A DNA stretch of 64,000 nt from Naegleria gruberi (taxonomy: Eukaryota). The stretch lies in assembly GCA_000004985.1 (NCBI GenBank), contig GG738845.1; one strand, given 5' to 3'. Shown here one piece after another: positions 27,635-58,243 of the stretch. The notes under the pieces were generated by a model. The model saw only the letters and a program-made list of their open reading frames with translations, did not search any database and was not told the DNA's origin. The position numbers and the translations under genes are program-made. Each line of letters opens with the position of its first letter. Within the stretch, counting starts at the first letter, position 1.

Positions 27635-30600
27635 TTAGACAACATTTGGTGAATTTGGTGAATTAGGTGAGCTTAGTCTAATTAAATTTGCTTTAGAATT
27701 CTTTCTGTGGGATGCATAGAATAAAAAATCAATATCTGGGTCACTTCTTGGTGACTCAGTTCCAGAATTGTTTGGAGAATCATCATCAATGTTCAAGTCA
27801 AGTTTTGACATTGAACCTATACTAAGGGAGCTCATTGCAAAGTCTTCAAATCTTATTTTGGAATGTAATTCTTGGTGGATATTGTAAACATAACCTTTAG
27901 CCCTTCTCTTTCTCTTAATGATTATTACTGTTGCAACAATTACTATTACAATAACAAAAACAATCGAGAATCTTCTGGTATTTGAGGCTCAGTAAGAGAA
28001 CAATTGCTTCCATAATAAGGTGATTCACAAATACATTGGTTTGGGGAGACACATTTTCCATGTCCATTACAAACAGCTATATTGGCGGATTCAACTTCAA
28101 AACAAACAGGAATTTCACATTGAGAGCCTGTAAATTCAGTTTGATTACATTTACATGTATTAGGGCTCTCACAAATTCCTTTTCCATTACAAACTGTTGG
28201 ATCAGTGCTAAATTTTTGATAACAAATAGAAAGTTCACAATCTTGACCGGAATAGCCATTTGTACAAACGCACTTATCTGGTGAAACACAATTTCCTCTT
28301 GAGTGACAAACGTTTGGATCGTTGTTTGTTTAGTTAAAGCAAACAGGATATTGACAATGGGTACCACTATACCCATTATTACAAGTACAATCGTCAATGT
28401 TTTGGCAATAACCATTACCGTTGCACATTTTTGAGGTTTCATTAGAAAGAATTGAGTAACATGAGAAAAGCTCACAATTAGGGTTTGAGTATCCCAATTG
28501 GCAATCACATCTATCAAGTGCTGAACAGTTTCCTTGGCCATTACAAACTGATGTCAACTCTGATCTTACACCAAAACATGAATGAGTTTCACAATTTTGG
28601 TCAAAGTATCCAATTCCACACTCACAATGGTTAGGAGATTTACAAATTCCATTTCCACTACAGACTGTACTTTCATTAGAAGGAATTCCAAAACAAATAG
28701 GAATTGAGCAAGTGGTCCCAGTAAAACCTTGAACACATTCACAAACATCAGGAGCAATACAAACTCCATAATTGCAAATAGATGGATCCTTGGAACCATA
28801 ACAAATTGATAGGTTGCAATATTGTCCAAAATAGCCAGCACTACAGAAGCAAGAATCAGGAGAAACACAAGATCCATGACAACTACAGACATTTGGTGAA
28901 TTAAACAATTCTGAATAACATGAGTATTCATCACACTTGGAGCCGTTATACCCAAGAGAGCATTTACAAACATCCAAAGAAGTACATTCACCTAATCCAC
29001 TGCAAACAAGTGAGTTGTTAGATAATAAGGAGAAACAATAAGGTAAATCACATTTTTCACCATAATAATCACTATTACAAGAACAATTATTGAGAGAATC
29101 ACAAGAACCATGTCCACTACAAACCAAAGAAGAATTGGACGTGATTCCAAAACATGTACCAACTTCCGCTACAAACATTAGAATGATTTGATTCCGAAAC
29201 ATGAAGTGATGGAACAGTCCCATCCATAATAGCCATCATTACAAACACATTTATCAATTTGGGAGCAAGTACCATTCAAGAAATTACAAACACTGGGATC
29301 ACTGTTAGCAACTCCAAAGCATGAGTGATTTTGGCAATTAGTACCACTATAACCATAAGAACAATCACATAAGTTTGGTCCTAAACAACTGCCCTTTCCA
29401 CTGCAAACATAGGAAGAATTTGAAATAATCCCACTACAATAGGTCAAATTACAAGAACTACTAAACCATTCGCTGTGGCAGGTACAAGAATCATAATTAA
29501 AACAGTCTCCATTTCCACTACAAACAGATACGCTGGTAGAGTTAGTACTATAACATGTAGTTTGATTGGCAAGAACAAGTATTCAGAGCTAGGCATGAAC
29601 CTTTGCCGCTGCATACATCAACAGAGATACTTGTACGACCAAAACATGTTGTAATATTACAGTTTGAACCAAAATATCCAGTGTCACACGTGCAAGAGGC
29701 ATTGCTATTGCATTGCCCTTTCCCATTACAAACTTTTGTATCATTAGAATTAACTCCAAAACATGAAGTAACATTACAATCCAAGCCGAAATAATTAGGT
29801 TTACAACTACAAGTATTTGGATAAGTGCAGTTTCCATTCGAACTGCAAACATGGGCACTATTTGAGTTAATATTAAAGCAAATTGGATATTGACACTCTT
29901 GACCTGTATACCCGCTCAAACATGAGCAGGTATTTGGTCCAATACAAGATCCGTGACCATTACAAGCCCGTGAATCGTTAGAGGGAATTGAAAAGCATTT
30001 GGGATATTGACATTGATCCCCTGTGTATTGTAATTGACAAGAACAAGTATTATTCCCAATACAGGTACCATTCTGATAATTACAGACAGCTGACTCATTG
30101 TACATTTTCCCATAACAAATAGGAATACTACAATCAAAACCTGCCCAATTACCGTAGCATTGACAAAAATCTGGATTTGCGCAATATCCATTACCACTAC
30201 ACACCTTGCTATTTGTGCTTAAAGTTCCAAAGCAGATAGGATCGTTACAATCGGATCCATTATATCCGTATGTTGTATTACAAATACATGTATCCTGTTG
30301 AATGCAATTTCCTCTACCAGAGCAAACATTATCATCACTGAAATTTCTTCCGCTACATTCAAAATAACATTCAATAAGGAAAGTACTCCCTGCAGCAACA
30401 TCAATAATAACGCCTCTTGTAATTTGCTTTTCTTCCAGAGAAACTCTAGTAAATGTTAATAATTCAGGTGATTTTACCTCATAGCTTAGAATCATTGTTT
30501 GTTGGAATTTGAAGAGCATAATTATCACCAAATCCCAACACCTTTCCATCTCTTGTAAGTAGGAGTGTGAGATCAGCAGCTGATGCCTTAATAATAAAGT

Positions 30601-32376
30601 AACCATCTGTTTTGATTTTTGTAGGATATGGAGATGATAGATCTGAAATCTTTGTTGAATTTGGTTGGAGTAGAAGCTACTGTTTGTGAATAAATCAACC
30701 TGTCATTCACATAATTTACATTTTCTAAAGGTAACCTTCCCATAAAAAAGATATCATTTTCATCATTTAAAAACATTAAACTTCTTCTACTGGCAAAACG
30801 ATTAACAATATTTTCTCCAATCAAGTCTCCCATTTCAGAAATTAAATTAAATTTCGTATAACTTTGGTTCGTTAAAAAGTCCAATGTTCTCACTGTTCCA
30901 TCAACCAATATTCCAGTTGTAGTTGAACCTACTGCCAACTTAATATCACTATTTTCAGTAAATACAAGTTTTGGAATAAAGTTGTAATGTTTCATGGTGT
31001 TTGCACCCCATAAAAATAAGGTTCCATTTGCTAACAAATAAGATGTATATCCAGAGCTGAAAATCTTTAGTGGAATGTTGGCAGAACCAGTAACAGTTGA
31101 CAAAACACCTTTTTCGTAAACTTGTGTTGGTTTAGATGTTGGTAATCTATTCTTTTCAATACCCAACTGGCCAGCACTACCTTGGCCAAATGAGTAAACA
31201 TGGCCATTTTTCGTGCTAATCATGCAATAATCATTTCCAAGCAATATCATCAGGATCTCCAGATAAATCATCTGCTGTGACAAGTATTGGTACAGCAGTT
31301 CTTCTTAGTGTGGAATTTAGTTGACCAAATGAATTCTCCCCCACAGTGTAGATACCCTTATCAACCTTCAACAGTAAGCTGGAAGATCCAATAGCTACCT
31401 TTTCAACAACATTTGATCCTATGCCAGTAACTTTGGTTAAAGTGTAATTTAAAGACAACACAGATTCATCACCAGAAAAAACATATCCCATCCAATATAA
31501 ATTCCCGCTTGTATCAATAACAGAGGAAAATTTGTTAAATTTTGAAACATAGATCTTGGATGCAACCTTCTTCCAGGAATTGACTATTTGGGGTGAAGAT
31601 AAGGAAATATTGTAAGTGGTCACAGTATGATTAATGTATAACTTTTCTTGTAGAGTTTCAATCATAGTAGCATTACAACACATTCTCTTTGTAATGTTTG
31701 TTTGGTTATTAAAGAGGTCATAACTTAATACTGACATGGTGGTGTTATCACATTCAACATAATCTTCACTACAATTGTAATTAGAAAGATCATAATATAG
31801 TTGTTCTGTTGTTGTGATATTGAAATCTCCAATAGTACCACCTATTTCACCACAAACTTGAATTGATCCATCTGAGGCAAGGAACTTTGAGTATGTACCA
31901 ATACTCATGTGTTGTATTGGGTATGCATAGGTGAAGCTTATTTGGGTGGGAGTTGAAACAGTGCTAAGTCCTTCATACCTACTACCCAAACAGAGCTCGT
32001 TATTGTTGTTCGATCCAAAGCTGTAAACAGAGCCTGTGTCTGTATGCTGCCCAGTACCAATTTCAATAATCCTTCCTGCCCATGTTGAAGTATTAACAGG
32101 CATTGGAATAAAATGGGATACGAAGTTTCCTGTACCTAGAGCACCATAATTGTTATCCCCAAATGAATATAGTCCACCATCTGAGGTGAGAATGAGAGTA
32201 TGTACTGCTGAGCTTGAAATCTGCACTTTTGTTTTATCTGTAAGATAGTCAAATTGGAGAGGTAAAAATGAATACAAAAGATCAGTTCCTAGACTTCCTT
32301 TGTGAGCTCCTGTTGCATAAAGGCTACTTGTTCCTCCCTTACATGATAAAGTACTAACATCAATAACTTTGCACAC
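27635..32376 (-). CDS. giant surface-protein gene: RCC1-like beta-propeller (about 590 aa), about 25 tandem EGF-like cysteine-rich repeats, TM helix and cytoplasmic tail. Fragmented by at least 5 frame disruptions (pseudogene or mis-assembled repeat gene)
   Basis: ORFs 31231-32376 and 30588-31283 carry RCC1 blades (…YSFGDNNYGALGTGN…, …VYSFGQGSAGQLGIEK…). ORFs 29548-30606, 29178-29447, 28330-29223 and the frame continuing to about 27960 carry about 33-aa repeats with the pattern C.C..GY.G..C....CFG....S..VCSG.G.C. There is then a TM helix (IVFVIVIVIVATVIIIKRKRRAKGY) and a tail ending SPNSPNSPNVV (ORF 27635-27835). Adjacent segments are in different frames with overlaps too short for introns. 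The TM junction is repaired by one extra T in a T5 run near 27955-27965. Confidence 0.55.
27990..30330 (-). repeat. coding tandem array of about 25 EGF-like (tenascin/laminin-type) cysteine-rich repeats, about 99 nt each
   Basis: A periodic CxCxxGYxGxxC...CFG...VCSGxGxC motif is read on the minus strand. The repeat structure also generates the spurious antisense and alternate-frame ORFs listed in the track (28077-28541, 28566-28991, 29589-29858, 29916-30197, 30219-30404). Confidence 0.75.
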
Positions 32377-34947: not shown

Positions 34948-36207
34948 ATGAAAGCTGTTCGTATTGCCCGTCCTTGCCTTTCATCTGCAAAGATGAATAA
35001 AATTCAAATTTTTGCATCATCACAAAGAAATATCAGCAATTTTGTTATTGACAGTACTCTCACAGAAGAACAACTCCAATTAAGAGAAAGTATTAGACAA
35101 TTCGTAAAGGAAGAAATATCACCAATTGCCGCCCAAGTTGATCAAACAAACAGTGCTCCAGTCAGAGATTTGTGGAAGAAAATGGGTGATTTAGGTCTTT
35201 TGGGTATTACTATTGATCCAGAATATGGTGGTACTGGCTTAGGAGTTTTCGAACATACTCTTGCTGTTGAAGAACTTTCACGTGGTTCGGGCAGTATTGC
35301 ATTGAGTTATGGTGCTCATAGTAATTTGTGTGTTGATCGTATTTTCCGTATTGGTAATAAGGAACAAAAAGAAAAGTATTTACCAAAACTTATTAGTGGA
35401 GAACATGTTGGTGCTCTTGCTATGAGTGAACCAAACTCAGGTTCCGATGTTGTTTCAATGAAAACTAGAGCTGAGAAAAAAGGTGATAAATATATTTTGA
35501 ATGGTAATAAGATGTGGATTACTAATGGACCTGATGCAGATGTTTTAGTTGTTTATGCAAAAACTGATATTTCTGCTGGCTCAAAGGGTATTACTGCTTT
35601 TATTATTGAAAAGGGATTTAAAGGATTTTCTACTGCTCAAAAACTTGACAAGTGTGGTATGAGAGGAAGTAACACTTGTGAATTGGTTTTCCAAGATTGT
35701 GAAGTTCCTGTAGAAAATGTTTTGGGCAAAGTCAATGAAGGTGTTAAGGTTTTAATGTCTGGTTTGGATTATGAAAGATGTATTCTTGCTGGTGGTCCAC
35801 TTGGTCTTATGGAAGGATGTATGGATGTTGTTGTACCTTATGTACATGAGAGAAAACAATTTGGTCAATCAATTGGTGAATTCCAATTAATGCAAGGTAA
35901 ACTTGCTGACATGTACACCAAACTTAATGTTTGTCGTTCATATGTATACTCTGTTGCTCGTGCTTGTGATTTAAGTCCAACAAGTAAGCCATTGAGAAAG
36001 GATTGTGCTGGTGCTATTCTTTATGCAGCTGAGGGAGCAACATGGTTAGCATCCCAAGCTATCCAAACATTAGGTGGTAATGGTTACACTAAGGAATATC
36101 CAGTGGAAAGAATATGGAGAGATGCCAAGCTCTATGAAATTGGTGCTGGTACAAGTGAAATTAGAAGAATGCTTATCGGTAGAGAATTGTTCGAAGAAAC
36201 TAAATAA
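34948..36207 (+). CDS. IVD: isovaleryl-CoA dehydrogenase, mitochondrial (leucine catabolism)
   Basis: Very high similarity to IVD along the whole length: [125 protein letters not shown]. There is an N-terminal presequence. The gene ends in TAA. Confidence 0.92.
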
Positions 36208-36255: not shown

Positions 36256-37098
36256 ATGCTCAATCCGAATGATATTGAGGAACATTCCACTAGACCACTT
36301 TCTTCATCAATATTTTCTCCACTTTCCCCTACAAAGATGAGTATGAGAAAAAGTAAGAAAATAGGAAATCTTCTTAGACCAGGAACTGCAGCCAGTACTT
36401 TTTATCAAGTTTTAAACCAACCACAAACGGATCAAACCCTTCTCGGAAATTCTTCATCAAATAATATTCAAACAAATGGAAAAGGGACTTTCCTAGCTCC
36501 ACAAGATGAAAATCGTATGTTATTGACTCATCTCATTATTTAGATCTTTATAGTTATTGAAATTAATTCCGATCTCCCCCTTGCAATACTAATATATTTC
36601 CACAGCTTTTATTCGACAGCATGGTTATTGGTGACATTAGTATTACACATTTTGAAGCATAATTTTAATACAATTTCAACAACAGATACTGCTATTTTCT
36701 CTGTTATAATTGTTGTTTGGACAGTAATTGAATTTCCAAGATTATTGATTGGCTATTCAGGAAATTTGAAAGAGAAAGTGCCTAGAGTTTTTGCATTCAT
36801 GATTCTTTCCACTATTCAACCATTATTGTATATTTATTTCATTGTTTATCAACCTGTTGTATCTCCATTAGACTACATTATTTGTAGTATTCAGTTGCTT
36901 TTCTACATTTTGGAATATATTTTCGGAATCAGTTCTCTCAGAAATTTCACAAGAGTTAGCGGGATTAGATACAAATTGTACTTTAACAAGGATGGTACAC
37001 TAGCCCTTGATGAGGAGGAAGATGTCGAAAACAAAAATTTCGTGGAACCTTTTAATATCAATACTGAAGGTGATTTTAGTGATCATTCAGAAAACTGA
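36256..37098 (+). CDS. hypothetical multipass membrane protein, 2 exons (about 270 aa)
   Basis: Exon 1 is 36256-36514 (soluble S/T-rich N-terminus). The intron is 36515-36553 (39 nt, GTATGT...TATAG). Exon 2 is 36554-37098, in the frame of track ORF 36628-37098 with 4-5 hydrophobic helices. The TTG start the track gives for 36628 is an artefact. Splicing joins ...APQDEN to LIEINSDLPLAILIYFHSF... in frame. Confidence 0.55.
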
Positions 37099-37165: not shown

Positions 37166-40100
37166 ATGTCAAACAATTTTACCAACGATAAACTTATACA
37201 CAATTTAGAGTATAATTTATCTGATTTATCTGACTTGAACAAATTACAATCTATATTAGAAATTTACTATTCTGGTAGTCTTTATGTCCATGGATCAAAC
37301 AACAGTCAACAACAAATTAATATTGAAACCATGCTTCAACATTATTTTGGTTCCGATAGAGATTGTTGGAAAAAAGGTATTTTACTTTTAGCTAATAGCA
37401 GTGGAAATTCTACAATGCAACACGTTCAATGGTTTGCATTAACTCTTTTAGAGGAGAGTGTGCATCATGTTGCTTATTGGCAGAATGAAATGAAGGATGA
37501 GGAGAGACAACAAGTGGAAAATGTACTTATGGTTAATGTTCTACCAAATTATAGGGTAGGTTAATATTTTAGTATGGTCTATTTATCATAATCATCAAAA
37601 AAAATATCAGCTTTATCCTGCTTCTATTTGGAGAAAGGCTTGTAAAGTTGTTGTGGAAATTGTAAAAATGGAATGGCCACAAAGATGGCCAAACTTTTTA
37701 AATCAAGTTTTTCAAATTGGAAACAATTCTGATACAGTAGTTGTTGCTCTTACTATTTTACAAATGTTATCTGAAGAAATTTCAAGTATGAGTGGAGAGA
37801 ATACCAGAGATAAAGATGATATTCCAGAAGATAGAAAAGAGGTTCTTTATCAATCTATGCTTTCTATTGTAGATGAATTGTTAACTTTTCTTTTAGGAAT
37901 TTTAACATCACTTCATGATGGTTATTTTGCCACATTATTTTCAAAGATACAATCCCAACAAAATATTGATGAAACAAGTTTCAAAGGATTTTGTGAAATT
38001 GTTACTTTCTCTCTTGATTGTTTGAATCATGTACTATCATGGGTTAGTCCTATTGAGCGATATCTTCTTTCACACTCAAATCTTTTCCCTTGCATTGTGA
38101 ATTATGTTAAAGTGTATTTCAATTTAATTTATTGCACTTCAGGAAATGGTATGTTCTTATTTTGGTTATGGTTTTATAAAATTTCATTAAAGAGTCAATC
38201 AAGGAAAGAATAGACGATCCAATGTACTCCATAACAACAAAGGCTTTGAGCTGTTTTAGTGAAGTTATTTCCAAATCAATCAAAACAACACAAGTAGATG
38301 ATAACTATGCTAGATCGCTTGGTATTTTAATGAATAACATGTATTCAGCTATGCTTGACCTTTTATCAACTTACAGTGGTATTTTTAATTTCGAGAATGG
38401 TATGTTTACAATATTTATATTATTAAACCATTTCAGAGAATACAAAATTGAAATTAATAGAATTATTTTCAGAAGGAGAACGTGAGGAACTTATTGTAAA
38501 ACTGCATTTAATGGTACAAGGATTCAGTGAATACCATTTGGGAAGAATATTTCTTGCTATGCATAATGATGATTTAGGTCATGGGTTGAATAAGCTTCAG
38601 TTAAACTTTGATATCAATGCATTTTTGGAACGTTTTTATAGATTTACAACTCTTCAATTCACTACTGATGATTATCAGACAGCAGTGGCAACTTGGCTCA
38701 CTATTATAGATACAGTTACAAACTCGTTTGAAGACGTTAGTGATACAAGTTTCTATCAAACCTACCACAATTGTATTAAACTCTTAATTAGAGATGTTAT
38801 AGGAAGAATTCAATTCAGAGAAATTAAGAAATATTTTTCTAATTCCCTCAAAGTTAATATTGAAAAAATTGATATCAAATATTTGGAAGATTTGGATGAT
38901 ACCAAAAAAGATAGCCAAAATTGCACTGATTTTTATAATCATTTAGATGTTTGTGTTGAATTAATAGGGGCTAGTATTGAAACCTTTAGAGATGAATTAG
39001 AAGTTGTAATGGAAAATTTCGAAAAAACTATTACAGATTTCAATTCTGTATTCAATAACCTTCTTCCTTCTTGCATTCAATCTCAAACACTTCCGGATAG
39101 GAAAACCTGGGATATTGTCACTATGATATTTAAAGATTTGAGAACTTTGATTTTTATCCTTACAAGATTATCAAACACATTCGTTTATGATTTTGAGAGC
39201 AAATTTAATATTACTGCCAATCTATTTACCAAAATTTTAGCTATACAAAATACTGGAATCAGAACAATATTTGATAACAATAGTCAATATGCTATGATAA
39301 TTCAAAAATTAGATCCATCACCTCATTCTATTGGGTTATATAGGTTAACAGAAGAAACTTTTTCATTCCTTCAACAATACATTAGATGGATTTTCCTCTT
39401 TGGTACAAATATTAGTGCCAAAATTGTTGAGCAAGTGGAAAAGAGTGGTTCAACCTCTGATGAATTATTACAAATGCAAACTAATTATATCTCTTTAGTG
39501 ACTAGTATCTGTGATAATATTGTGCAATGTCTATTAATAAGTAGTAATAGCGCAAGTTTTACATTACCATTCGATTTGACTGCTTCTTCTACCAGTCTTT
39601 TATTATTACTGTCTTCCTCACTTACTAATTTAAGTTTGAAACAACCAACAGCTACAAATCTTAATGGAATGGCCTATAAGCATTTTCTTTCTACCACTAT
39701 TGAAGAATTACCTTCATTTCAATCCCTAATTCTACCAAATTTGAATCAAATGATTTCTTCTATTGCATCCAAATATCCTCCAATTTTAGAGAATGCTGAA
39801 TTTATTCTTTCTAAAATATTTGTATCCATTTCTACCAGTATTTTAAGCAAAGTTAAAATAGCACCTTCTGTTTATCCTAATATGANNNNNNNNNNNNNNN
39901 NNNNNNNNNNNNNNNNNNNNNNNNNNNNNNNNNNNNNNNNNNNNNNNNNNNNNNNNNNNNNNNNNNNNNNNNNNNNNNNNNNNNNNNNNNNNNNNNNNNN
40001 NNNNNNNNNNNNNNNNNNNNNNNNNNNNNNNNNNNNNNNNNNNNNNNNNNNNNNNNNNNNNNNNNNNNNNNNNNNNNNNNNNNNNNNNNNNNNNNNNNNN

Positions 40101-41166
40101 NNNNNNNNNNNNNNNNNNNNNNNNNNNNNNNNNNNNNNNNNNNNNNNNNNNNNNNNNNNNNNNNNNNNNNNNNNNNNNNNNNNNNNNNNNNNNNNNNNNN
40201 NNNNNNNNNNNNNNNNNNNNNNNNNNNNNNNNNNNNNNNNNNNNNNNNNNNNNNNNNNNNNNNNNNNNNNNNNNNNNNNNNNNNNNCATGGAACTTATCA
40301 CAGGATCCATGCCTATCTTTATCAAAGACAATCATGGAAGAACAGTTTTAATACAATTACTCAAACTTTTAAAGGCTGTAGTATCTGATGGAAGTGGAAA
40401 GCTTTCCAGTACCATACCTAAAATAATTCATACTTGCAAAAATATTATTTATCCAGAGTTGAAGAGTATTGGGGAAGGTAAAACAATTGGAAATACTTCC
40501 TCAATTGAGGTTCTTCCATATTATTATGACTTATTGTATTGTATTTTAAATTATAACATGAAATATTTCTTCATATCTAATATTGTGAATGGAGTTATTC
40601 AAGAACAACAATGTACAAGTATTGAAACTTTAGATCAATTCTGTTTCATAATGGAATGTTTTTTGAATTCATTTTACTCAACAGATATTTCTATTTTTAA
40701 GAAAAATTTATCTTTGTTAGAGGATTTGAATGATAGGAACAAACTTTATGAAAGATTAGCTTTCAGACAAGTCTTGCCTGCTTTTGGTAATAATTCAATG
40801 ATGAATTGTTTTGCTACAATTTTTATTAATATTTTAATAGCCAAAAGTCACAACCTTTACAAGTCAGAATTAATAACATCACTTTATAATATGGTTAATG
40901 CTGGAAATTGGGAAAATTTTTCAGTTTTCATCCAACAATTTTTGAGCAGCGATAACAAGTTAGTGCAAAAGTTGAGTAATGACCAAAAACAACAATTACT
41001 TATTCGTCTGCTAGCTAAACCAAATCATATTGAGGATTCTGAATGGAGAAGAAGAGAAAGCTTTGCAAAAAGAGTATCCCAATTCACAAACGATATTTCT
41101 TACAGTGTAAAGCAAAACACACATTCTAACCTATCCTTCCTTGTTTTAAATTATATTAATAAATAA
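37166..41166 (+). CDS. exportin-5 / Msn5-like importin-beta-family nuclear export receptor; at least 5 exons, interrupted by a 401-N assembly gap
   Basis: Exons 37166-37555, 37611-38148, 38193-38399, 38437-39885 (runs into the gap at 39886-40286) and 40287-41166. Introns are 55, 44 and 37 nt (GTAGGT, GTATGT, GTATGT donors). The product carries the exportin-5 hallmark ...VVEIVKMEWPQRWPNFLNQVFQIGNNSDTVVVALTILQMLSEEI (compare human XPO5 MIKREWPQHWPDMLIEL) within HEAT-like repeats. The frame changes across the gap, as expected for a gap of unknown length. Confidence 0.7.
39886..40286. other. assembly gap (401 N)
   Basis: Run of N inside the exportin-5-like gene. The frame differs on the two sides of the gap. 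Confidence 0.99.
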
Positions 41167-44421: not shown

Positions 44422-45774
44422 ATGGAGTTTGCTTCACCCTCATCTGTTCACAACACAAACTACCCTGTTCAGAGAAGAAATTCTAACTCTGAACAATTTT
44501 TGACTCCCTATTCGGCCAATGAACCTCTGTACTTAGATGATGACAATGAAATTTGTTCTCCACAAATCCCGATCTCAACTGCAAAAACATTTTCTAAATC
44601 TGATAATTCTCTTGGTACTGATCTTCTCCCAAGTAATATGTCGTACGAAGTGGTTTGGAGAGAGGAAAAAATAAGGTTGCTTGAACAAGAGAGAAACTCC
44701 GCCCTATTAAAAATTGAGGAATTTGCTAAACAAAACCTTATTCTAAGAGAGGAGTTGAAAAAGAATCAGAAAAACACAAGCAATCCAACTAATGAGATCA
44801 ACCAATTAAAACATGAAAGAAATTCCATACAAGAATATGCTGAACAAATCCGCCAACAAAAGAACTTTCTTCAAGAACAACTAAATACGATAAAGCATGG
44901 CCAGGGAAATGTTGAAAGAGATTTAGAAAAAAAGGATATTCAAATTAGAAACCAAGAAAACCAAATAAGAGAATTATCTCACCAACTAGTTTCCCTCCAA
45001 AAGCAATGTGAGCAACTAATCTCAGAGAGAGAGAAAATGAAGAGTGATCTTATTGAGGCTCAAACCAATTTACATATCAAATCAGCTGAGCTAGAGGAAC
45101 TCAATGGAGTTCAAGAAGAATTGTTAAAGGCTATGAGCGAAGAAAAAAAGAAAACAACAGAACTGTTAAAACAGCAGAACTCTGAAAATGTTTCACGAGA
45201 GAAAATGAAAAAAGAAAATGAAAGATTGGAACTGTTGGTTGACAAGTTACAATCTGACTTTAAAAGGGAGCAACAAGAAAATTTTAATCAAAGATTAAAA
45301 TTTAATACAACACTCGAAGATACACAGATGAAAATGCAGGAAGAAATTGATAGGCTCACTAACAGTCTTTCCCAACTCAAGAGAGAAACAGAAGAAAAAG
45401 AAATACAACTAAAAAACCAAATTCATTCTCAGCAACACAAGATTGGTACATTGACAGATCAATTAAGAGAACAAATGGACAGGTATGAAAAGAATTTATC
45501 GTTATTAAAAACTGAAGAATCAGAAGAAAAGAACAAACACAACCAACAAGTCTCAAAATTTAAGAAGGAATTATCATCAAGCATTGAAATGATAAAACTG
45601 TTAAAGGAAGCAAACAAAAATTTGGAAGACAACTTTGTACAACATCAAAAAATAATATCTGCTTTAGAAGACCGTTTGAAAAAAGAAAAAGAAGAAAAGG
45701 AGGAATTGGCAGAAAATCTTGACATTCTAAAAAACAAATTACCTAAAATGCTTGCTTTGATTGCAGAAGACTGA
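44422..45774 (+). CDS. coiled-coil protein (450 aa)
   Basis: Uninterrupted ORF ending in TGA. About 350 aa of heptad-rich E/K/Q/L sequence follow a Ser/Pro-rich N-terminus. Confidence 0.7.
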   Translation: MEFASPSSVHNTNYPVQRRNSNSEQFLTPYSANEPLYLDDDNEICSPQIPISTAKTFSKSDNSLGTDLLPSNMSYEVVWREEKIRLLEQERNSALLKIEEFAKQNLILREELKKNQKNTSNPTNEINQLKHERNSIQEYAEQIRQQKNFLQEQLNTIKHGQGNVERDLEKKDIQIRNQENQIRELSHQLVSLQKQCEQLISEREKMKSDLIEAQTNLHIKSAELEELNGVQEELLKAMSEEKKKTTELLKQQNSENVSREKMKKENERLELLVDKLQSDFKREQQENFNQRLKFNTTLEDTQMKMQEEIDRLTNSLSQLKRETEEKEIQLKNQIHSQQHKIGTLTDQLREQMDRYEKNLSLLKTEESEEKNKHNQQVSKFKKELSSSIEMIKLLKEANKNLEDNFVQHQKIISALEDRLKKEKEEKEELAENLDILKNKLPKMLALIAED

Positions 45775-45838: not shown

Positions 45839-48800
45839 ATGTCTGAACTGGAAGACCTTGATGAGGAACCAACAAACAACACAAGACCATCCTCATCACA
45901 TATTCCCCAAAGCAAGAACGAATTAACAACAGATTTTCCCAAAAGACCAAAAACATCTCCCTCCAGAAATGATGAAGGGGCAATTGAACAACAACAGGAA
46001 GAACGGTCGGAGGATGTGGATCAAACCATCACCAAAAGAAGGAAAAAAAGAAGGACGAGAAGGCTTTTCGATGATGAACAAGAAGAGCAACCAGTTCTTG
46101 AATCTGAGGTAAATCAAGTAATCCAAACCAACGAAACAGAGGAAAGGATTCCAGAAAGGAGTGAATTCCAACAAAATGAACATCCTACAGAAGAGCCAGT
46201 TCAAGATTATCTTGAAGCTGAACCAATCACAAAAAAGTTGATTGAGAAAGATATTAAACAAGAAGAAAAGATTGTAGAGAGAAAGTTTCCAACAGTTATA
46301 AAAAAAGAACAAGCCAAGAAAAATCAGAATGAATGCTTGACACAAATCTCGGAAATAAGACCTGTGGTTGAAGGAGTTATTAAACAAATTCAGATTAGAG
46401 TTAGAGAGCTAGGAAAGCTTCAAGAATTTTATTTGTCAAAACAAAAAACTAAAGAAGCAGAAGAATGTAAAAGCTTGGCAGAAAAATTGAAAACATCCAC
46501 CGAAAAACTGTCCCAAGAATATTCTTCCAAATATAGATACTTTGATCCTCAAGAGGAGGGAATATTTGCTGACAAAAAGCCATTCATGTTGGAAAAAGGA
46601 CAACATTTACTTGAACATAGACTTTTAAGGGAATCTAATGGATTAACAAAATTTTTTGATGAAAATGGACAACTCATGGTTCAAATGGATCCAACTGCAA
46701 AAGTATTCACAAAACCTGGAGAAAATGATTTTGACTTTATTGACAATAGAACAATATCTCTTAAACGGACAATACCAACAAGAAGTATTCGTTCAACAAC
46801 AGCAACAAAACACTACAAGATAGAAATAGATCTTAGAGAAGTCTTATTTGAAGACCACCCTTTAATGTGTGAGGAGGAAATATTAGCTAGAAAAATACAT
46901 GAAGCATTCAAAATGTATAAGGAATTGAAAGAAAATGACAAATATACATACTTCCATAAGAGATTATTAGCTTTGCAAACAGAACTAGATAGACTTAGAG
47001 GCAAAAAAGACAAGGCGGTAAAAAAAACAAACCCACTTGATGAATTAAGCTATCTCACAAAAGAAACAAAAGAGTTGGAAAGAGAAATGTCTGTTCTAAG
47101 GTCTGAAATACGACAAAATAGACAAGATTTGGAAAATGAGGAGCAAAAAGAAATAATGCTAGTAAATTCAGTGATTGGAAATTGGAATGCCCTTTGCAAA
47201 GTTAGATCTACCAACAGATATAACGTAACAAACGTTAAATTGGGATTTAGAACAATTCCTCAAAACAAGGAGGATGACAGTTTTAGGATACAATACCAAA
47301 TCGAACAAGAGTTACAAGAATTGGAAGAGGATATGAGATGGAGTTACATTCAAAAATTAATTGAATTCAGAGAGCAACTTATTCCAAAACAGGAGCAAGA
47401 GTTTTCTTCCCTATATTTGATAGCAAAGAGCTCTCCCAAACTTGAATATTTTGATAAAGAAGAAGAAAAAAAGAAAATACTGACACGAATAGAGAAAACA
47501 ACAAGATATCCTGGGGAACCAATTGTTGTTCCAGAAATTTTGAAAATGGAAATAACAAAAGAATCAGAATTACCACCCGTAAGTATTTGCTTAAAATATG
47601 AAATAACTCGATCAGATGGAGGTCGAAAGAAGGAAGCAAATTAGCATGCTCTCATACCATATTAATTTATTGGTAAATGGAAACTATGTCTGTAAAACTA
47701 CCAATCAACAACTAAGATCTGATTTCACAATTAATTTTAATGAAATTGTTTCTGTTAGCGTTTTTAAATGGCCAGAATCAATCAGCTTGCAGATTTCTCA
47801 ATCTGGATGGTTCGAAAAGCCGCTCACTAATGTTTTTGTCCCTGTTCCAGGTTTAGAAAGATCTGGTAAAACAGATACTGAAAGTGTAAAACAAATTTCA
47901 TTTACTTCCCCGGAACCACATGTTCCAGTTTGGGATCTTCAGGCAACAGGCTCCTTTCCTCCTTCAATATTTCAAATATTCAAACCTGTTCTCTCTCCCA
48001 GTCATCATACCTACGGAAGTATTAAACTCTCTATTTCTTGGGTAAAGCCATCCGAAGAACGGACAGTGGAAGCCCCAAAACCACCAGTCGAAAAAACAAA
48101 GAAGAATCTTCCAACTGCAAGAGACTTACTCAACCTGAAACAAATAACTTCTTGGATGGAAACAAACAACATTGATCCCAATGACCCAAGAAACACTGGA
48201 CTTCTTTCCATGTTGAATGAATTAGACAGAGACGATCTTTCTAGCAAAGGTTTTTATTTGGCTGAGCAAGATGAAGACCTATTCTTTTTCGAGGAATTTA
48301 ATAGTTCTTCTTTCCAAAGACGTCTCCATTTATTGAAATTGAGGGATGAAGTAAAAGGAAAGGTACCATTACCTATGATTTCTTTGAATTTAGATCATAT
48401 CCAACCAAGGAATGTTAAAAATTATGAGGAAAGGATCATCCAATCACTCTCCAACGAGGCAAGATTATCATCATACGTAAATCAAGTTAGAAATTATACA
48501 AATAATGTTGTAATGAAGAAAGCAAAGAGACTAGTGAAGACAAATATGGAGTAAGTTATTTGGAAAATTAATTTCCTTACAAATATTTCTAGTGTATCTC
48601 AATATGTTAGAGAGCCTCCACTCCCAGAATTCCACCATTCCATTGATGCCATAATTGAAGTATTTGAAGAATACCGACCTTTAAATCCAAAAAGAGTTCA
48701 AAAGGAAGTACCTCCTATTAATGAAATTAATCAATGCAATATACTTATCCAAATAACAAGAGGATACAACTTCCCAGTCAGGAAAGGGCACGATGATGAG

Positions 48801-50651
48801 ACCTATAGAAACTACAGGCAAGAGAGATTGAAAAATGCTAGTGAAATTGGATTAGAAATGCAAATGGGAACTCGTGTTGCAACAAATGTACCAACCAATA
48901 TCTATGATCACACAATAGCTAATGCTGCCACATTACAAAAAGGACCCCAAGATACAATTAATTATATCACCATGGCTAAAAACACTCAAGAGCAGGGAAT
49001 GCCAGATGTAAGTACTAACTTTGCATTCTTAATTATTTAATTTCAACAGAGATTGCTCTCATTCGTTGCTATTAACTTTGATGGAGATATTCAAAGAACA
49101 AAATCTGTGGAAGGTCCATTCCCTCAATTCAATCAAACCCTATCAATACCTCTAAAAACTGTAAATAATGACTATAGCCCAGAATCACTGAAATTAATTG
49201 ATAAGGAAATTTACTTTGATGTTTTTGATGAAATAACCGTTGAAGGCCTAAGAGACGAAAGAGATTACAATACCATAAATCAAAGAGCTGAATTTAAGTG
49301 GTTAGGCTCTTACTCAGTACCATTCTCTACTCTGTACCAAAACGGAAAAATAATTGGTACCTTTAGACTTAAAACACCTCCTCTCTATCTGGGCTATGGA
49401 AAATCTGTTAATGATCAGAACGCTTACACAGCCTTAACCGTCTGTATTACACTGGATCCTCCTTTGCCAAGACCAGAGAAAGTTGAAGATTTCATAATTA
49501 CTGGAGAGGGACCTGAAGTGTATTCTTACTGTCAGTGGTGGTCTAAAGTTGTGAGAAAGTCCAAATATGCAAAAACCAGGAATGTGAAATGTCTTGTTCC
49601 AAATATTGAAGGAAAGGCAACTTTACTTACAAGGTACATTACTCCACAAGACCCTCCTCCTGAATTACAGACAGCTTCTGAACTAGCAAGATTTGTATCC
49701 CTCATTCCTCTTTTAAACGATTCATTAACGTTTGACGCAGGAGATATTTGGATTGGATCCCAAGAGTTTTTAGATACAAGGGCTGGTGATTGGGAAGAAC
49801 ATTCAATTCTTCTGTGCAACTATTTCCTTAGTTTGGGTAAAACAACTTTCTTTGTTCTTGGAAAAGGTGTCCCAGAAGGAGATACTGCATATGTTCTTAC
49901 AGTTGAAACCAGCGCAACAATTACACATAACAATAACCATTCGTATCAGGAAAATAGAAAGTGTTTATTGTTGTGGAACTCAGTAACCGGAGAGAAATAT
50001 TCAGTAGATGATCCTCTTTGTCCCCTTCAAGAAATACACTTAATTGCATCCCAAACAAATATTTGGATTAATGTGCAAAAACATGCCCAGCCATCCATGA
50101 TGAAATTTGATCTTAATGATATTTCACTATTTTATCCTCTATATAACCCAACAAGAGATTCTAACAGGATGATTGCTAAAGAATGTTGCGATCAAAAAGG
50201 AAAGATTCAATATAAGAAACTACTATACAATAAGTGCTCTCCAAATAATAGCATAAGACTAGAACAAGATATTAGACGAGCAATTGAGGAAGGATTTTCT
50301 TTATGGAGACACAAAGCTACGATATGGGACAACTCTGTTAGCAAAACATTTAAAGAGCTTTTACAAAGTTTCGAAGCAAGCAAAAAGCTAGACCAAGCAC
50401 TAAGTGATGAAAACCAACAACAAGTTTTGGCCATTGTAAATGAATCAAGTGCAGTGAATGGTTTTCCCCTTAATTTTTGTTTCAAGGATATTGAGGAAAT
50501 TGTTACAGAAGTACGAAACACCATGGTATACGATACATATGAGCCGGATGTAAAGTTTGCACTAGCTGTGTATGTAGAGCCATATGCTAATGATATTTGT
50601 AGTGTGTGGGTTTACGTTGCATCAATTATCAACAAGAGAGGGTATTATTAA
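45839..50651 (+). CDS. CC2D2A (MKS6)-like ciliary transition-zone protein: N-terminal coiled coil, C2 domain, C-terminal inactive transglutaminase-like domain; 4 exons, about 1560 aa
   Basis: Exons 45839-47578, 47616-48550, 48593-49007, 49050-50651. Introns are 37, 42 and 42 nt, all GTAAGT...AG, one with an ACTAAC branch site. It has a basic/coiled-coil N-terminus, a C2-like beta-sandwich (RLLSFVAINFDGDIQRTKSVEGPFPQFNQTLSIPLKT...) and a TGL-like core with a degenerate catalytic site (DAGDIWIGSQEFLDTRAGDWEEHSILLCNYFLSLGKTTFFVLGKGVPEGDTAYVLTVE). The architecture and length match CC2D2A. Confidence 0.7.
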
Positions 50652-52252
50652 TCATAATATCACTCCACTTCCCAGATAGGATAACATGCTTCAATCGGCA
50701 TAAAAATCTACTTATTTCTCCCATTTCATCTTTCCTGTGGTAGAAGAATGTGAAACAGTCTCCCAAGGAAACATCATTAATTCCCTCAGCCTCTTTAATA
50801 TCTGGAAGAGGAATTTTACAAAATCCAAACCTGTTTACTCTGTCACCAAGGGATAATTGTCCAAAATCGTTTCTCCCTTAAAAGAAATAATTATAATAGA
50901 GATTACAAAATAACAAACCTGAAAAATAAAACTCATTTCTATCTGTAATTAATATTGAACGAAAATTTCCACATTTGATAAATTTGATTTTCTCCTTGAA
51001 TTCTATTTTGTTTAAATATCCGCTTGTTAGCTCAGTACACTTTGAGACACCCAATTGTCCATACATATTATTCCCAAAGCTATATAATTCGTTAACTCGA
51101 TTAAGTATAAGTACATGTGAAGCTCCCACAGAAATCATGTCAATCCAACCAATATTAATATTAACGGGTGTAAAAGTATTTCTCTGAATACAGTCAGGAA
51201 ATCCAAGTTGTCCAAATGTATTTTCTAATTAATCTAATATTCAGTGTCATCACTAAAAATTGAAACAAACCTCCACAAGAATAAATTGTATTCTTTCTTG
51301 TTAAAATCACTGTATGAGAATGCCCAAATCCGAAATCCTTAACTGAGTCTGTAATATAATCTATATGGGTAAATGAAGGCACTATAGTGACATTTTGCAA
51401 TCCCAATTGTCCATTTTGATTATTTCCTGCAAGATATAATTTTCCAGATCTTGTTAGGAATCCAGTTTTATGAAGTCCACATTTAAGCAATATTATTTCT
51501 TCACAAAATTGATTGGCATTCGTGGGATGAAAAGTATTACATTCTATCAATTGACCAATCCCTAATTGACCAAACTCGTTATCTAAAAATTATTAACTAT
51601 AAACTTAATTTGAAATTTACCTCCACAACAATAAACTTGATTGTCCAATGTCAATAAAGCAGAATGATACGATTTACTGGCTATTGCTTTAATGGACAGA
51701 GATTTCACTCCCATAACTTGAATAAATTCGAGAACACTTTCGTTGTGACCTAAAAGTTTCTAAAAATCCAAAAGAAAATATATTTACCTAAACCTATTAT
51801 TCACTTTTGTCAAAAACATTAAAATAATAATACAAACCTAATTGCCCACTGTAATTCCTTTGAAATTTAAATAAAATTCAAGAAATTATTACTCACCATC
51901 CTAAAAAGAATGTCACCTGGCAATTTATAATAAATTATAACATACCACACACCCACAATTCATTCCCAAATGTTAATATCATAGAGTGGCTTGCTCCTAG
52001 TTCTATCTGTTTAATTTCCTTTAAAATGTTTTTAGCTGTTTCTTCTACTGTAGAAATCCACTTGGTACTATTGTTGTTATTGTTTGATATTGATAATTGT
52101 CCATAATAGTTTCTTCCACAACAAAGTACTTTATATTTCCTCTGTTCATTCATTTGTTTTGCATCTTCATCACAAGATGAGAATAAAACCCTGTTCGTAA
52201 ATATTTTATTATCATCAAGTTGCAAATGATTTTCCTCTTGATAATTGTTCAT
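50627..52252 (-). CDS. RCC1-repeat protein, intron-rich (at least 6 micro-introns); 3' end approximate
   Basis: Track ORFs 51935-52252, 51194-51550 and 50878-51138 plus short intervening exons all carry RCC1-blade motifs (CCGRNYYGQLS, NYSGQLGL, AGNNQNGQLGLQN, ENTFGQLGFPD, GNNMYGQLGVSK, GENDFGQLSLGD). They are separated by GTATGT, GTAAGT, GTGAGT and GTTTGT introns of about 35-45 nt. Exon 1 is 51947-52252. The last exon appears to read into the final codons of the convergent CC2D2A-like gene. Confidence 0.55.
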
Positions 52253-52266
52253 TTTTTATTATCAAT

Positions 52267-53481
52267 TTATTTTCTAAATCCGAACCAGCCACCAGAAGCT
52301 TGTTTCTTGTCTTCAACAGGTTGTTGTTGTTGTTGAGCTTTCTTAATGTTTTGTAATTTTGTAATAAAATCACGAGCTATTTGTTGTGCTGGTTTGTCTC
52401 TGTTTCCGTATTCATTTAAAATTGTCCTCACATCAATTTTACCAGATTTACTGGCTACAAGCTCCAAGAATGGTACTAAATCTGTCAGTAATCTGTCGGA
52501 TGTATCTCCTTTCCATGGCTCAACAACAAGTGTATTTTCAGGTTGCTTACTATAGGCTTCAGCACGGTGGTCAATCAAAACAATCCTTTCGATAGGTCTG
52601 TTCATCAATGACAGATCCTTAATAGTTTTACCATTCTCCATAGTTGTAGAATCCTTGAAGAGTTTGTGAGCATATTGATTTGGATCAAGTCTTTCAATAA
52701 TTTGTTGAACAGATGTCATATAATTTTCACTGAAAAATACCAATTCATAGTATTGACTAATTGTCTTGAGGAAATTATCCAATCCAGGACGTTTTTGTGT
52801 TTTCCAACCTGTACGTGGTGTGTAATAAGTATGAATCAAAAGGTCTTCGACTGCTAAAATCAAAACAGGTTTTTGAGGAGATCCTTCTGCAAGATCAGGA
52901 AGGAGTTTAGAATTGGTTGGTTTGGTTAATGGTGCCATGAGTTCATCAATTTTCTCTTTCAAATTATCAAAGCTAAATCCTATTTCGGAGTATAATCCAT
53001 ACATTGCATAGAGTCCCATCATCATAAAGAAGGGAAGTGAATATTTTACACCATATGCATGCCAGTTTGGTTTTGTACGAATTTTTTCAGTAGCTTGTTG
53101 GTCTCCCATATCCTCATAGTCTGCACCAGTTGTTTTCTTTTTTTCATTTGTCTTTTGTTCTTGTTGTGAATCCTTTTTTTCATTTGTCTTTTTTTCTTTC
53201 TTTGGTTCTTCTGCTTTCTTTTCTTCTTCAGCTGTTGAAGCTTCTTCTTGTTCCTCGGCTTCTTCTGGTTGTGGTGGAGGAGGATTGTTCTTTCTTTCCT
53301 CAGCCTTCATCTTTTTAATTCTTTCGGCTTTTTCTCTCAAATTATAATCATCTTCATTGGATGGTTTTGAACCAACACGAAGAAGAACTTTAGTAGACGA
53401 AGTGAAGGCTCTGTTTTGTTCCAAAGGTTGGAAAGAAAGGAATTTGTTTGTATTAATGTGGTTAAGAATTGATAAGTACAT
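52267..53481 (-). CDS. TIM50: mitochondrial import inner-membrane translocase subunit TIM50 (FCP1-like phosphatase fold)
   Basis: Presequence, single TM (YSLPFFMMMGLYAMYGLY) and the FCP1-homology domain. This is closely collinear with TIM50: KPVLILAVEDLLIHTYYTPRTGWKTQKRPGLDNFLKTISQYYELVFFSENYMTSVQQIIERLDP...IKDLSLMNRPIERIVLIDHRAEAYSKQPENTLVVEPWKGDTSDRLLTDLVPFLELVA. The real ATG is at 53481; the track start at 53484 is GTG. Confidence 0.85.
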   Translation of the reverse strand: MYLSILNHINTNKFLSFQPLEQNRAFTSSTKVLLRVGSKPSNEDDYNLREKAERIKKMKAEERKNNPPPPQPEEAEEQEEASTAEEEKKAEEPKKEKKTNEKKDSQQEQKTNEKKKTTGADYEDMGDQQATEKIRTKPNWHAYGVKYSLPFFMMMGLYAMYGLYSEIGFSFDNLKEKIDELMAPLTKPTNSKLLPDLAEGSPQKPVLILAVEDLLIHTYYTPRTGWKTQKRPGLDNFLKTISQYYELVFFSENYMTSVQQIIERLDPNQYAHKLFKDSTTMENGKTIKDLSLMNRPIERIVLIDHRAEAYSKQPENTLVVEPWKGDTSDRLLTDLVPFLELVASKSGKIDVRTILNEYGNRDKPAQQIARDFITKLQNIKKAQQQQQPVEDKKQASGGWFGFRK

Positions 53482-53721
53482 CACTAATAATTGTGAATAA
53501 GTGTAATATTAAAAACATACATTGCTCCTTCCTGGAAAGCTGTCTTCCCGTAGCTTTGGTGAGGGCAGGTAATAAATGTTTGAGCATTTTTTAAAGATTT
53601 GTTGGAAATAAAAATTCAATCAATTTATTATATAAAAATATTATTCTAATTCAAAGATTAAATATTTAATATTAATTGTTTGAGGGAAAATTATTTTATC
53701 GCTAACATTAAATATAATTAT

Positions 53722-55384: not shown

Positions 55385-55864
55385 TTTTTTTTTGATGTTT
55401 CACAATGCGAAATGTGAAAATATATTGTAATTAAATTGAATTGAAGCCTTTTCGGTTATAAGATAACTTTGGAGGAGTCCACACTTGTTATTCAACACCT
55501 GACTTTGTTTTTTTTGAAAAGGTCAACATTATAATTCATCGTAATGAATGGGGAGGTTTCATTAACTAGAGAGTGATGACTCGAGTAATCATATGCCATA
55601 TTTTGATTACAATGTTTTGAAAACTAAATAGTAAGGTTTGTTTTAAGGAATTTAGACAAGTTTGGTCGTTTCCTCTAACCCGTTCTGCTCTTTCATTAAT
55701 AATTTCATTAAATGTTGCTAATACCATTAAAAAATCTAATGTGTTATTATTATATGTAATAGGCCTGTAAATCATGCATAATTAATTGTCAAGTATTGTT
55801 TGCCATCTATGATAGTTGATTGTTTCATCATATCCATTTTACTTTTATTAAAAAAATATTAAAA

Positions 55865-58243
55865 ATGAAAGGGTTCAGTCTCTCTCTCCCTCTTGCTAAA
55901 GTTGTTACGGTTGGCGAGGAGGTTGATAACCAAAATGTACAACCTACAACAATTACACAACAAAATTCACAAATAGAACCTAATATTGCTTCTGTTCCTT
56001 TGATATCAAAATTGAACATCTCTTTAAATATGTCAAATACTTCAGCACAAAACAATATTTCTGAAGATGAAGGCATGATACAAAAACCAACTGATTCTTT
56101 TTTTTCCTCTATATCTATTGATAACGAACCAGTAGAAATTGAAAACATCGCTAAACTTTCATCATCTTCATCACCATCACAATACACTAGTAATATTAAA
56201 ATTTATGAATGTTTTGATGATTCTCCTTTTGGTACTGATAGCAACAAACCTTGGAAGAAAGATTTTAAATGTAGAGCATTTCCTCTTTTGAATGGAAAAG
56301 ATTCAAAATTTAAAGTATCATCATGCTATATTGTCATACATTTATTCCAACACCTAGATCAACAAACCAAGAACCGTGATGAGACCAGGGATGAAAATAA
56401 CTTTAAAATGATAGAGCAATTATTCACTTGGGGAACTATTGGCTCATTTAAAGATCAAAGTTATCATGATCTGTCATTCACTCCTCGTGGCTTGGAACAT
56501 CCATTTTCTAGTTCAAGAATTGATCAAAACAACAGGTTTAACTTTGATTTATACGTATGGTATGGTAAAGAATCAACCGATTTTGTAAAGAGTAGAACTA
56601 TTGAAAAAGCTTTAAAATTAGAATCCCAGTTACAACAACCATCAATTGTAGAGAGTTTATTCACATCCGGAAAACCTCAATCTTTTGAAGATTTAATCAA
56701 ATCTGGTAATGCTACTTATCCTTCTAACGTGCCATCAATTTCAATATCAAAAAACCATCACTTACTTTCCCGAATTAGATCTTTAATGGTAGGAGTTAAT
56801 AATATCAACAAATGTAAATTTTTGTTTGATGAGTTATCTACAACACCACCCGATGAAAATTCCAATGAGAAACTCAACAGTTTGCTACAATTACGAAAGC
56901 GACCAATGGCTGGTGTTACTAATCATGAGGATTCACTAGAATCTCCAAGAAAAAAAGAGAGAACCCAACTAAGTCCTATCAATACTCGTGAAGTTGAACA
57001 TGTCGAGGAACCCAAAGTAATGAGTGGAAGAGAATTAGCAAAAGCCTGCCATTATGTTTGTTCTAAAATTACTGATTTCCTATTTCTTGGAAGCGCTGCT
57101 GTAGCACAAGACAAGAAGAAATTAAATGATAACGGAATTACTCATATAATTAATGCAGCTGCTAGTGTTTATTGTGATAATTATTTCCCTAATGATTTTA
57201 CTTACTATTCTCTCAGCTTATATGATGATCCTAACGAATCTATCATTGGTTCTTTTTATGGAGTTATAGAATTTATTGAAAATGCAATCAAGAAAGGCGG
57301 TAAAATTTATGTACATTGTCAAATGGGAGTTTCCAGATCATGCTGTTTATGTATTTCATATATGATGTGGAAATATAGAATGAACTTTAATCAAGCACTA
57401 GAGGATGTGAAAACAAAGAGAGCATGTTGCTCTCCTAATGCTGGTTTTTTAGTACAACTTACTCAATGGGAAACAATACTAGGATTGAGTGATAAGTCAA
57501 AAAAAGAACCAAATGCATATCTCTATCGCATTAGTCCTCTAAATAACTTTTATGCCATTCACAAAGAATTAGTTCCAAAGCTATGTCACAATACTAGACA
57601 TTTAGATTCAAGAACATGTTTCTTGCTTCAATCAAAGAGTCATTTGTTCCTTTGGGTTGGATCACAAAGTACAAACGAACTCTTAGAAGCTGCCAACAAG
57701 TTTATTGAGATATTGAGATCATACTCTCCTAATTCTTTGAATGCATGCATTCAAATGCAAGAAGGTCAAGAAAATGATGAATTCAACCAAATTTTAAATT
57801 CTTTAGAAATTGATACTAGGCGTGCCCCTACCGAATATCAAGATTTAAAGTATCTTCAAATGACACAAGAGGATGCTATGGAGTTAATGAATCAAATTAA
57901 AACAACATCTGGCGAACCTGTTGATCCTGAAACTGAAAAGGAAATGAAAAATTACAAAACTGGAACTTTGTACAGTTATGAAGATAGATCATTTAGCGAG
58001 TTTGATTATTTTGATAGTGAGGATATTTTAGATGATATGTGTTATGTTATGCTGCCTGAAAATGAAGATCACATTCTTGTAATGATTGGTTATGATGTAG
58101 ATCTTGGTGATGACAGTTTGGATGATAGGGGAGAAGAAATTGGAGAGCTCTTTATTGCATGGAAAAAACTACCTGAAAGTACTTCCATTAGGGTTTGTGA
58201 AGAGGATGATCCTGATTTCTTTAGGTACTTTAAGAATGGTTAA
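55865..58243 (+). CDS. dual-specificity protein phosphatase with C-terminal gelsolin-like domain (about 790 aa)
   Basis: DSP catalytic domain with the CX5R P-loop VHCQMGVSRSCCLCISYMMW, flanked by DKKKLNDNGITHIINAA. Downstream there is a gelsolin-type fold (RTCFLLQSKSHLFLWVGSQSTNELLEAANKFIEI) and an acidic C-terminus. The annotated start is the first ATG (MKGFSLSL); the track start at 55820 is TTG. Confidence 0.75.
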   Translation: MKGFSLSLPLAKVVTVGEEVDNQNVQPTTITQQNSQIEPNIASVPLISKLNISLNMSNTSAQNNISEDEGMIQKPTDSFFSSISIDNEPVEIENIAKLSSSSSPSQYTSNIKIYECFDDSPFGTDSNKPWKKDFKCRAFPLLNGKDSKFKVSSCYIVIHLFQHLDQQTKNRDETRDENNFKMIEQLFTWGTIGSFKDQSYHDLSFTPRGLEHPFSSSRIDQNNRFNFDLYVWYGKESTDFVKSRTIEKALKLESQLQQPSIVESLFTSGKPQSFEDLIKSGNATYPSNVPSISISKNHHLLSRIRSLMVGVNNINKCKFLFDELSTTPPDENSNEKLNSLLQLRKRPMAGVTNHEDSLESPRKKERTQLSPINTREVEHVEEPKVMSGRELAKACHYVCSKITDFLFLGSAAVAQDKKKLNDNGITHIINAAASVYCDNYFPNDFTYYSLSLYDDPNESIIGSFYGVIEFIENAIKKGGKIYVHCQMGVSRSCCLCISYMMWKYRMNFNQALEDVKTKRACCSPNAGFLVQLTQWETILGLSDKSKKEPNAYLYRISPLNNFYAIHKELVPKLCHNTRHLDSRTCFLLQSKSHLFLWVGSQSTNELLEAANKFIEILRSYSPNSLNACIQMQEGQENDEFNQILNSLEIDTRRAPTEYQDLKYLQMTQEDAMELMNQIKTTSGEPVDPETEKEMKNYKTGTLYSYEDRSFSEFDYFDSEDILDDMCYVMLPENEDHILVMIGYDVDLGDDSLDDRGEEIGELFIAWKKLPESTSIRVCEEDDPDFFRYFKNG

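Follow-up and report, generated by a model that had tools for sequence, protein, structure and literature searches.

The heterolobosean amoeba Naegleria gruberi has aerobic mitochondria. On becoming a flagellate, it forms two flagella and two basal bodies de novo, and both basal bodies and transition zones are assembled within ~1 hour. Herein, we analysed 64,000 nucleotides of N. gruberi contig GG738845.1 (assembly GCA_000004985.1), the whole of which is called the window below, with a gene at 45839-50651 for a CC2D2A/MKS6-like protein as the main subject and a gene at 9949-12639 for a SAS-4/CPAP-like protein as a second marker. Y-links can be seen in Naegleria, whose differentiation induces, among other genes, SAS-4/CPAP, MKS1 and MKS3 (PMC4819266). 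The architecture of CC2D2A/MKS6 was described by Zhang and Aravind in 2012 as a coiled coil, CC2D2AN-C2, CC2D2AC-C2 and a transglutaminase-like (TGL) domain, with TGL domains that are inactive throughout the CC2D2A clade (PMC3495828). Loss of SAS4/CPAP goes along with the loss of centrioles (PMC3144413).

Taken jointly, the best explanation of our results, and a very probable one on the protein sequences, is that the gene at 45839-50651 is a CC2D2A/MKS6 orthologue and the gene at 9949-12639 is a SAS-4/CPAP orthologue, both in the nuclear genome of N. gruberi. The features of the former are as follows.

45839-50651, plus strand: probable CC2D2A/MKS6 orthologue gene NAEGRDRAFT_77673 (splicing, Pfam, identity to the deposited protein)
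45839-47578, 47616-48550, 48593-49007 and 49050-50651, plus strand: its four exons
47579-47615, 48551-48592 and 49008-49049, plus strand: its introns of 37, 42 and 42 nt, respectively
46871-47392, plus strand: stretch of long alpha helices that may form a coiled coil, residues ~345-518, before the first C2
47510-48071, plus strand: CC2D2AN-C2 (PF15625), residues 558-732, across intron 1 (Pfam, E 1.7e-46)
49050-49454, plus strand: second, C-terminal C2-fold beta-sandwich, residues ~1031-1165 (AlphaFold strands, Foldseek)
49743-50141, plus strand: TGL domain (CEP76 peptidase-like, PF24656), residues 1262-1394 (Pfam, E 5.3e-32)
50313-50621, plus strand: CEP76_C (PF24652) C-terminal domain, residues 1452-1554 (Pfam, E 4.7e-14)

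Structure of the CC2D2A-like gene and its product

All three introns begin with GT and end with AG, and the reading frame was regained after each of them. The spliced product of 1563 aa was the same at every residue as XP_002683029.1 (EFC50285.1; UniProt D2UXH2) in an exact-sequence look-up, which establishes the gene structure; the coordinates and the exon count given by a first-pass annotation, a model's reading of the letters alone, were exact. The deposited name of NAEGRDRAFT_77673 is 'hypothetical protein [Naegleria gruberi]'. The orthologues of N. lovaniensis (C9374_006849) and N. fowleri (FDP41_007991) aligned without gaps over all three exon junctions, with 74-75% identity over 1437 aa. 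Their Pfam domains are those of the window protein, and the three introns are at matching positions, as was seen in the N. lovaniensis gene; their N-terminal ~130-180 residues could not be aligned.

Profile searches led to the CC2D2A family and showed that the product belongs to it at the level of domains. The CC2D2AN-C2 match reached 158.5 bits, where 25 is the cut-off, and covered positions 1-174 of the 176 in the Pfam profile. For the second C2, a Foldseek search against the PDB returned the C2A domains of otoferlin, CEP120 and dysferlin (probability 1.00, E 0.007-0.09). The C2 and degenerate TGL domains that had been read from the letters were recovered, but the single C2 of that reading was wrong, as two are present. 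Like human CC2D2A/MKS6/JBTS9 (MKS-6 in C. elegans), the window protein has a putative helical region, CC2D2AN-C2, a second C2, an inactive TGL domain and a C-terminal domain, and its length is near the ~1620 aa of the human protein. Unlike in human CC2D2A, Pfam PF00168 was below threshold on the second C2 of the window protein; it is precomputed on two homologues (P0137 and P0158).

The AlphaFold model of exon 4, built with 20 aligned sequences, had a mean predicted local distance difference test score (pLDDT) of 83.6 and a predicted template modelling score (pTM) of 0.86, and its TGL part matched DRC7 (E ~1e-8), the TGL-like protease LapG and PNGase in a Foldseek search against the PDB. Among solved structures, the axonemal protein DRC7/CCDC135 comes nearest to the TGL domain, with profile matches of E 1e-7 to 4e-5. 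However, DRC7 keeps the Cys of its 'GdC/GnC' motif and is part of the nexin-dynein regulatory complex, in a paralogous clade that forms a separate family (PMC3495828). In the TGL profile alignment, the column of this Cys was occupied by Trp1278 of the window protein ('AGDWEEH'; 49791-49793). None of the 14 aligned sequences, the window protein included, had Cys at this nucleophile column, the 13 other homologues having W, E, S or A. Trp was found in the window protein, N. lovaniensis and four other homologues, whereas the named animal CC2D2A proteins had Glu. The columns of the TGL His and Asp, which were assigned by motif inspection only, hold Thr and Asn in the window protein. The alignment confirms that the catalytic Cys was lost from the TGL domain, with Trp1278 in its place, which agrees with the published inactivity of the CC2D2A clade (PMC3495828).

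As an MKS-module component of the ciliary transition zone, the protein would be tethered by its two C2 domains to the membrane at the flagellar base. The TGL domain without its nucleophile may serve as a peptide-binding module instead of an enzyme, and the helical N-terminal region may assemble with other module members and so contribute to the Y-link 'gate'. This localisation, these partners and an expression during differentiation are predicted by analogy with the described proteins.

Two database observations concern the same gene. A 3.1-kb public metagenome contig (L001; ERZ929261 / ERR1078381, PRJEB11402) matched 47961-51062 at 99.97%, with one mismatch, indicating that a near-clonal N. 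gruberi or its DNA was present in that sample; a literature search found no paper on PRJEB11402. The cluster that contains the N. gruberi CC2D2A protein has a 532-aa metagenome fragment as its representative.

The SAS-4/CPAP-like gene, the source organism and the alternatives

In other organisms, the G-box of SAS-4/CPAP is the part that binds STIL/Ana2 and connects the cartwheel with the wall of the centriole. The window carries such a domain in the following gene.

9949-12639, minus strand: CPAP/SAS-4/CENPJ-like gene, a single open reading frame (ORF) of 896 aa
9958-10308, minus strand: G-box (TCP10_C), residues 778-894 (Pfam, PDB matches)

Pfam detected Tcp10_C (PF07202) in three stretches (E 1.3e-13), and residues 778-894 matched the G-box of zebrafish CPAP (PDB 4ld1, 4bxp) at E 1.2e-27 and that of Drosophila Sas-4 (4mpz) at E 2e-14, which bears out the TCP10_C G-box repeats annotated at the end of this gene in the first pass. 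As in CPAP/CENPJ/SAS-4, the G-box is C-terminal and lies behind a charged helical region. Unlike that of vertebrate CPAP, it is shorter, being aligned to positions 7-124 of a 184-residue construct. Residues 505-700 are visibly rich in E, K and L, and within them a coiled-coil heuristic flagged the stretch 604-664, its 61 residues being within the control range (shuffled maximum 63). The N-terminal 500 residues are acidic and of low complexity, with no detectable similarity.

Six translated products identified the source: each was the same over its full length as a protein deposited for N. gruberi, and a single contig of 1,555,553 bp carries them all. They are a PSMB proteasome subunit, NAEGRDRAFT_29002 (tetratricopeptide repeat, TPR), NAEGRDRAFT_56417 (Spt20-like), NAEGRDRAFT_61113 (BSD/TFIIH-p62-like), isovaleryl-CoA dehydrogenase (IVD) and the CC2D2A-like protein. 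By these identities, the window is part of a 1.56-Mb nuclear scaffold of N. gruberi NEG-M. They settle the species, which the letters alone had been judged unable to resolve; the flagellated, mitochondriate lineage read from those letters was right, and of the organisms then proposed, the amoeboflagellate was correct and the zoosporic fungus was not.

Several results weigh against reading the two genes as CC2D2A/MKS6 and SAS-4/CPAP orthologues. Of all parts of the CC2D2A-like architecture, the coiled coil is the least certain and can be proposed weakly. The heptad heuristic flagged residues 366-433, and its total of 94 residues was barely above the controls (shuffled mean 22, maximum 85); a low-confidence AlphaFold model (pLDDT ~50, shallow alignment) placed helices at 345-395, 400-464 and 479-518. 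One named homologue (P0149) is annotated as CC2D2B, and both C-terminal Pfam models carry the CEP76 name, as would suit a CEP76 or CC2D2B paralogue that is centriolar instead of a transition-zone protein. However, CC2D2AN-C2 was matched over its full length at E 1.7e-46, whereas CEP76 has a CEP76-C2 of its own and CC2D2B is without C2 according to Zhang and Aravind (PMC3495828). The length of 1563 aa and the order of helical region, C2, C2 and TGL also fit CC2D2A. The named homologues of the C-terminal 533 residues are mostly animal CC2D2A, although with only ~30-37% identity to the window protein over the C-terminal half, and the UniRef label of the N. lovaniensis orthologue is CC2D2A N-terminal C2 domain-containing protein. 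We consider such a paralogue highly improbable.

For the SAS-4/CPAP-like protein, the match is limited to the C-terminal 117 residues, and neither the tubulin-binding PN2-3 nor the microtubule-binding A5N region was detected by sequence (phmmer against the PDB, E<=0.01), the chains found being those of the G-box only. The N-terminal regions of SAS-4 proteins diverge quickly, and their absence from a sequence search is not decisive. The exact 896-aa sequence was absent from the protein collection, which gave no tie to the published Naegleria SAS-4 entry, and no searchable paper mentions the gene identifiers of the window. Together with the shorter G-box, these results leave room for an unrelated protein that merely has TCP10_C repeats and no function at the centriole. 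That is very unlikely, given the E 1.2e-27 to the CPAP G-box, the C-terminal position behind a charged helical region as in CPAP/SAS-4, and the report that Naegleria has and induces SAS-4/CPAP (PMC4819266). As regards the organism, the initial protein matches were only 74-85% identical, which could suggest a zoosporic fungus or another AT-rich flagellate as the source. The six exact identities to NEG-M proteins refute this, and the initially missing N. gruberi matches are explained by cluster representatives, so that its probability is next to nil. The best taxonomic match is to a lineage with flagella, since N. gruberi builds them. The reading as CC2D2A/MKS6 and SAS-4/CPAP orthologues of N. 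gruberi is the one followed below.

Further cilium genes and the chromosomal neighbourhood

Two more candidate cilium genes, which the first-pass annotation had overlooked, were found in the window.

17935-19080, minus strand: ZMYND12/TAX-1-like axonemal TPR protein NAEGRDRAFT_29002 (Pfam TPR_12, PDB matches)
36256-37098, plus strand: TMEM17/TMEM216-superfamily tetraspan gene, 267 aa, exons 36256-36514 and 36554-37098 (Pfam Transmemb_17)

The PDB matches of NAEGRDRAFT_29002, which ranged from E 3.7e-39 to 1.5e-22 and came from solved doublet-microtubule structures, were TAX-1 of Leishmania (E 3.7e-39) and T. brucei (3e-38), human ZMYND12 (1.5e-25), a Chlamydomonas inner-dynein subunit (7.6e-26) and bovine ZMYND12. 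The identical sequence is deposited only as 'hypothetical protein'. For the gene at 36256-37098, the spliced model matched Transmemb_17 (PF09799) over positions 1-107 of 107 (E 9.7e-25), and judged by this profile the product is a full-length Transmemb_17 tetraspan. Three strong hydrophobic segments were detected, and a stretch at ~95-118 that is visibly hydrophobic was below the scan threshold. Members of the TMEM17/TMEM216 superfamily are MKS-module transition-zone tetraspans (PMC4794247). The window gene is like TMEM17/TMEM216 (MKS2)/TMEM80 in covering the whole profile, and unlike TMEM17/TMEM216 in a 95-residue N-terminal extension; it may be of TMEM17 or TMEM216 type. As assessed from these profile and structure matches, both genes strengthen the conclusion that the source is a flagellate.

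Four cilium or centriole genes (SAS-4/CPAP, ZMYND12/TAX-1-like, TMEM17-family and CC2D2A) are thus present within 64 kb and ~40 genes, and the TMEM17-family gene lies 8.7 kb upstream of CC2D2A, both being MKS-module transition-zone genes. Approximately 365 of ~15,700 genes are induced during differentiation, and on this basis about one such gene would be expected per window of this size, as a rough, post hoc estimate. If the four genes formed a chromosomal neighbourhood that is co-induced in the amoeba-to-flagellate differentiation, the grouping would be no coincidence; we regard this as very unlikely. A search for conserved synteny in N. lovaniensis around CC2D2A and IVD gave a negative result: the two loci are on separate contigs there, with other neighbours and no TMEM17-like sequence, indicating that the linkage was not kept and that the proximity in N. 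gruberi is probably due to chance.

Two immediate neighbours of the CC2D2A gene were also observed. Directly downstream, on the opposite strand, is a multi-exon RCC1-repeat gene (50700-52250, minus strand). In N. lovaniensis, an RCC1-repeat gene (L003 15173-17119) is also directly downstream of CC2D2A, on the same strand, which could be what is left of microsynteny after an inversion, or mere chance. Upstream, a 450-aa ORF at 44422-45774 (plus strand) has strong coiled-coil character and ends with TGA 65 bp before the CC2D2A start codon. This ORF had no match in Pfam or the PDB, its exact sequence was not in the protein collection, and no counterpart was present beside CC2D2A in N. lovaniensis; it may be unannotated or differently modelled in the deposited genome.

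From these assignments, functional names can now be given to NAEGRDRAFT_77673 (CC2D2A/MKS6), NAEGRDRAFT_29002 (ZMYND12/TAX-1-like), the ORF at 9949-12639 (SAS-4/CPAP-like) and the gene at 36256-37098 (TMEM17-family). The named parts are useful for work on the de novo assembly of basal bodies in Naegleria, and their presence was expected from published surveys. That the TGL domain is inactive and that Naegleria has these families was known already, as were the genome (2010) and the CC2D2A architecture (2012), and the CC2D2A gene had been deposited, though unnamed. The results have little weight beyond such housekeeping; two marker genes had been enough to infer a flagellated, mitochondriate protist, possibly an amoeboflagellate, from the sequence.

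Mitochondrial markers, genetic code and other features of the window

The mitochondrial character of the source was read from two genes.

34948-36207, plus strand: isovaleryl-CoA dehydrogenase, extended at the N-terminus by a basic stretch; Met16 (position 34993) is the start of the deposited model
52267-53484, minus strand: TIM50 with a presequence-like N-terminus, a hydrophobic segment at ~149-170 and an FCP1/NIF-like domain

The IVD ORF matched isovaleryl-CoA dehydrogenase chains at E 6e-180 to 1e-165, compared with 5e-95 or weaker for the other acyl-CoA dehydrogenase classes. The sequence of this ORF from Met16 onwards is exactly that of XP_002683026.1, 'isovaleryl-CoA dehydrogenase [N. 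gruberi strain NEG-M]'; the first ~35 residues of the ORF are basic in character, with no acidic one among them. The TIM50 ORF matched Pfam NIF at E 3.6e-35 and yeast Tim50 at E 1.1e-40, compared with 1.5e-17 for C-terminal domain phosphatases; 'LAVEDLL' replaces the phosphatase motif DxDxT, and one hydrophobic segment precedes the NIF domain. Both gene names of the first-pass annotation are therefore upheld. The representative of the 90%-identity cluster that contains the Naegleria IVDs is a 634-aa NADPH-hemoprotein reductase unrelated to them. The two families are joined by a fused gene model of N. fowleri (CAG4716362.1, 1037 aa), with the result that homology searches scored on representatives miss the Naegleria IVDs.

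The stop codons of 26 ORFs were TAA in 21, TGA in three and TAG in two. In Sua5, TGA lies 28 aa past a complete Sua5_C domain, and in POLA1, TAG lies 7 aa past the zinc-finger domain. The exact identities to deposited proteins show that the standard code applies to the sense codons; the standard code with all three stops in use, as first proposed, is consistent with both results. The GC content of the window was 32.6%, and ~85% of its bases were in ORFs of at least 120 aa, which, with introns of 37-42 nt, agrees with the earlier description of an AT-rich, gene-dense stretch with short introns.

Three runs of N (551-600, 22992-23041 and 39886-40286) are in keeping with a draft assembly joined into scaffolds. 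The last of them, a gap of 401 N, is inside a multi-exon exportin-like gene with an Xpo1 domain at 37653-38213, and an apparent low-GC island at 38-42 kb was rejected as an artefact of this gap. Scans of the window for transfer RNA genes and Rfam families found nothing, and the tandem repeats were trivial. Searches of the PDB with the ORFs at 524-4750, 4912-7164, 26274-27395 and 44422-45774 gave no match. Two adjacent ORFs at 28330-30606 (minus strand) carry multiple epidermal growth factor (EGF) or teneurin-type EGF repeats (E ~1e-25); they may belong as exons to a single large gene, or form a tandem pair. An ORF of 807 aa at 55820-58243 (plus strand) has both a dual-specificity phosphatase domain and a gelsolin repeat, a pairing that looks uncommon.

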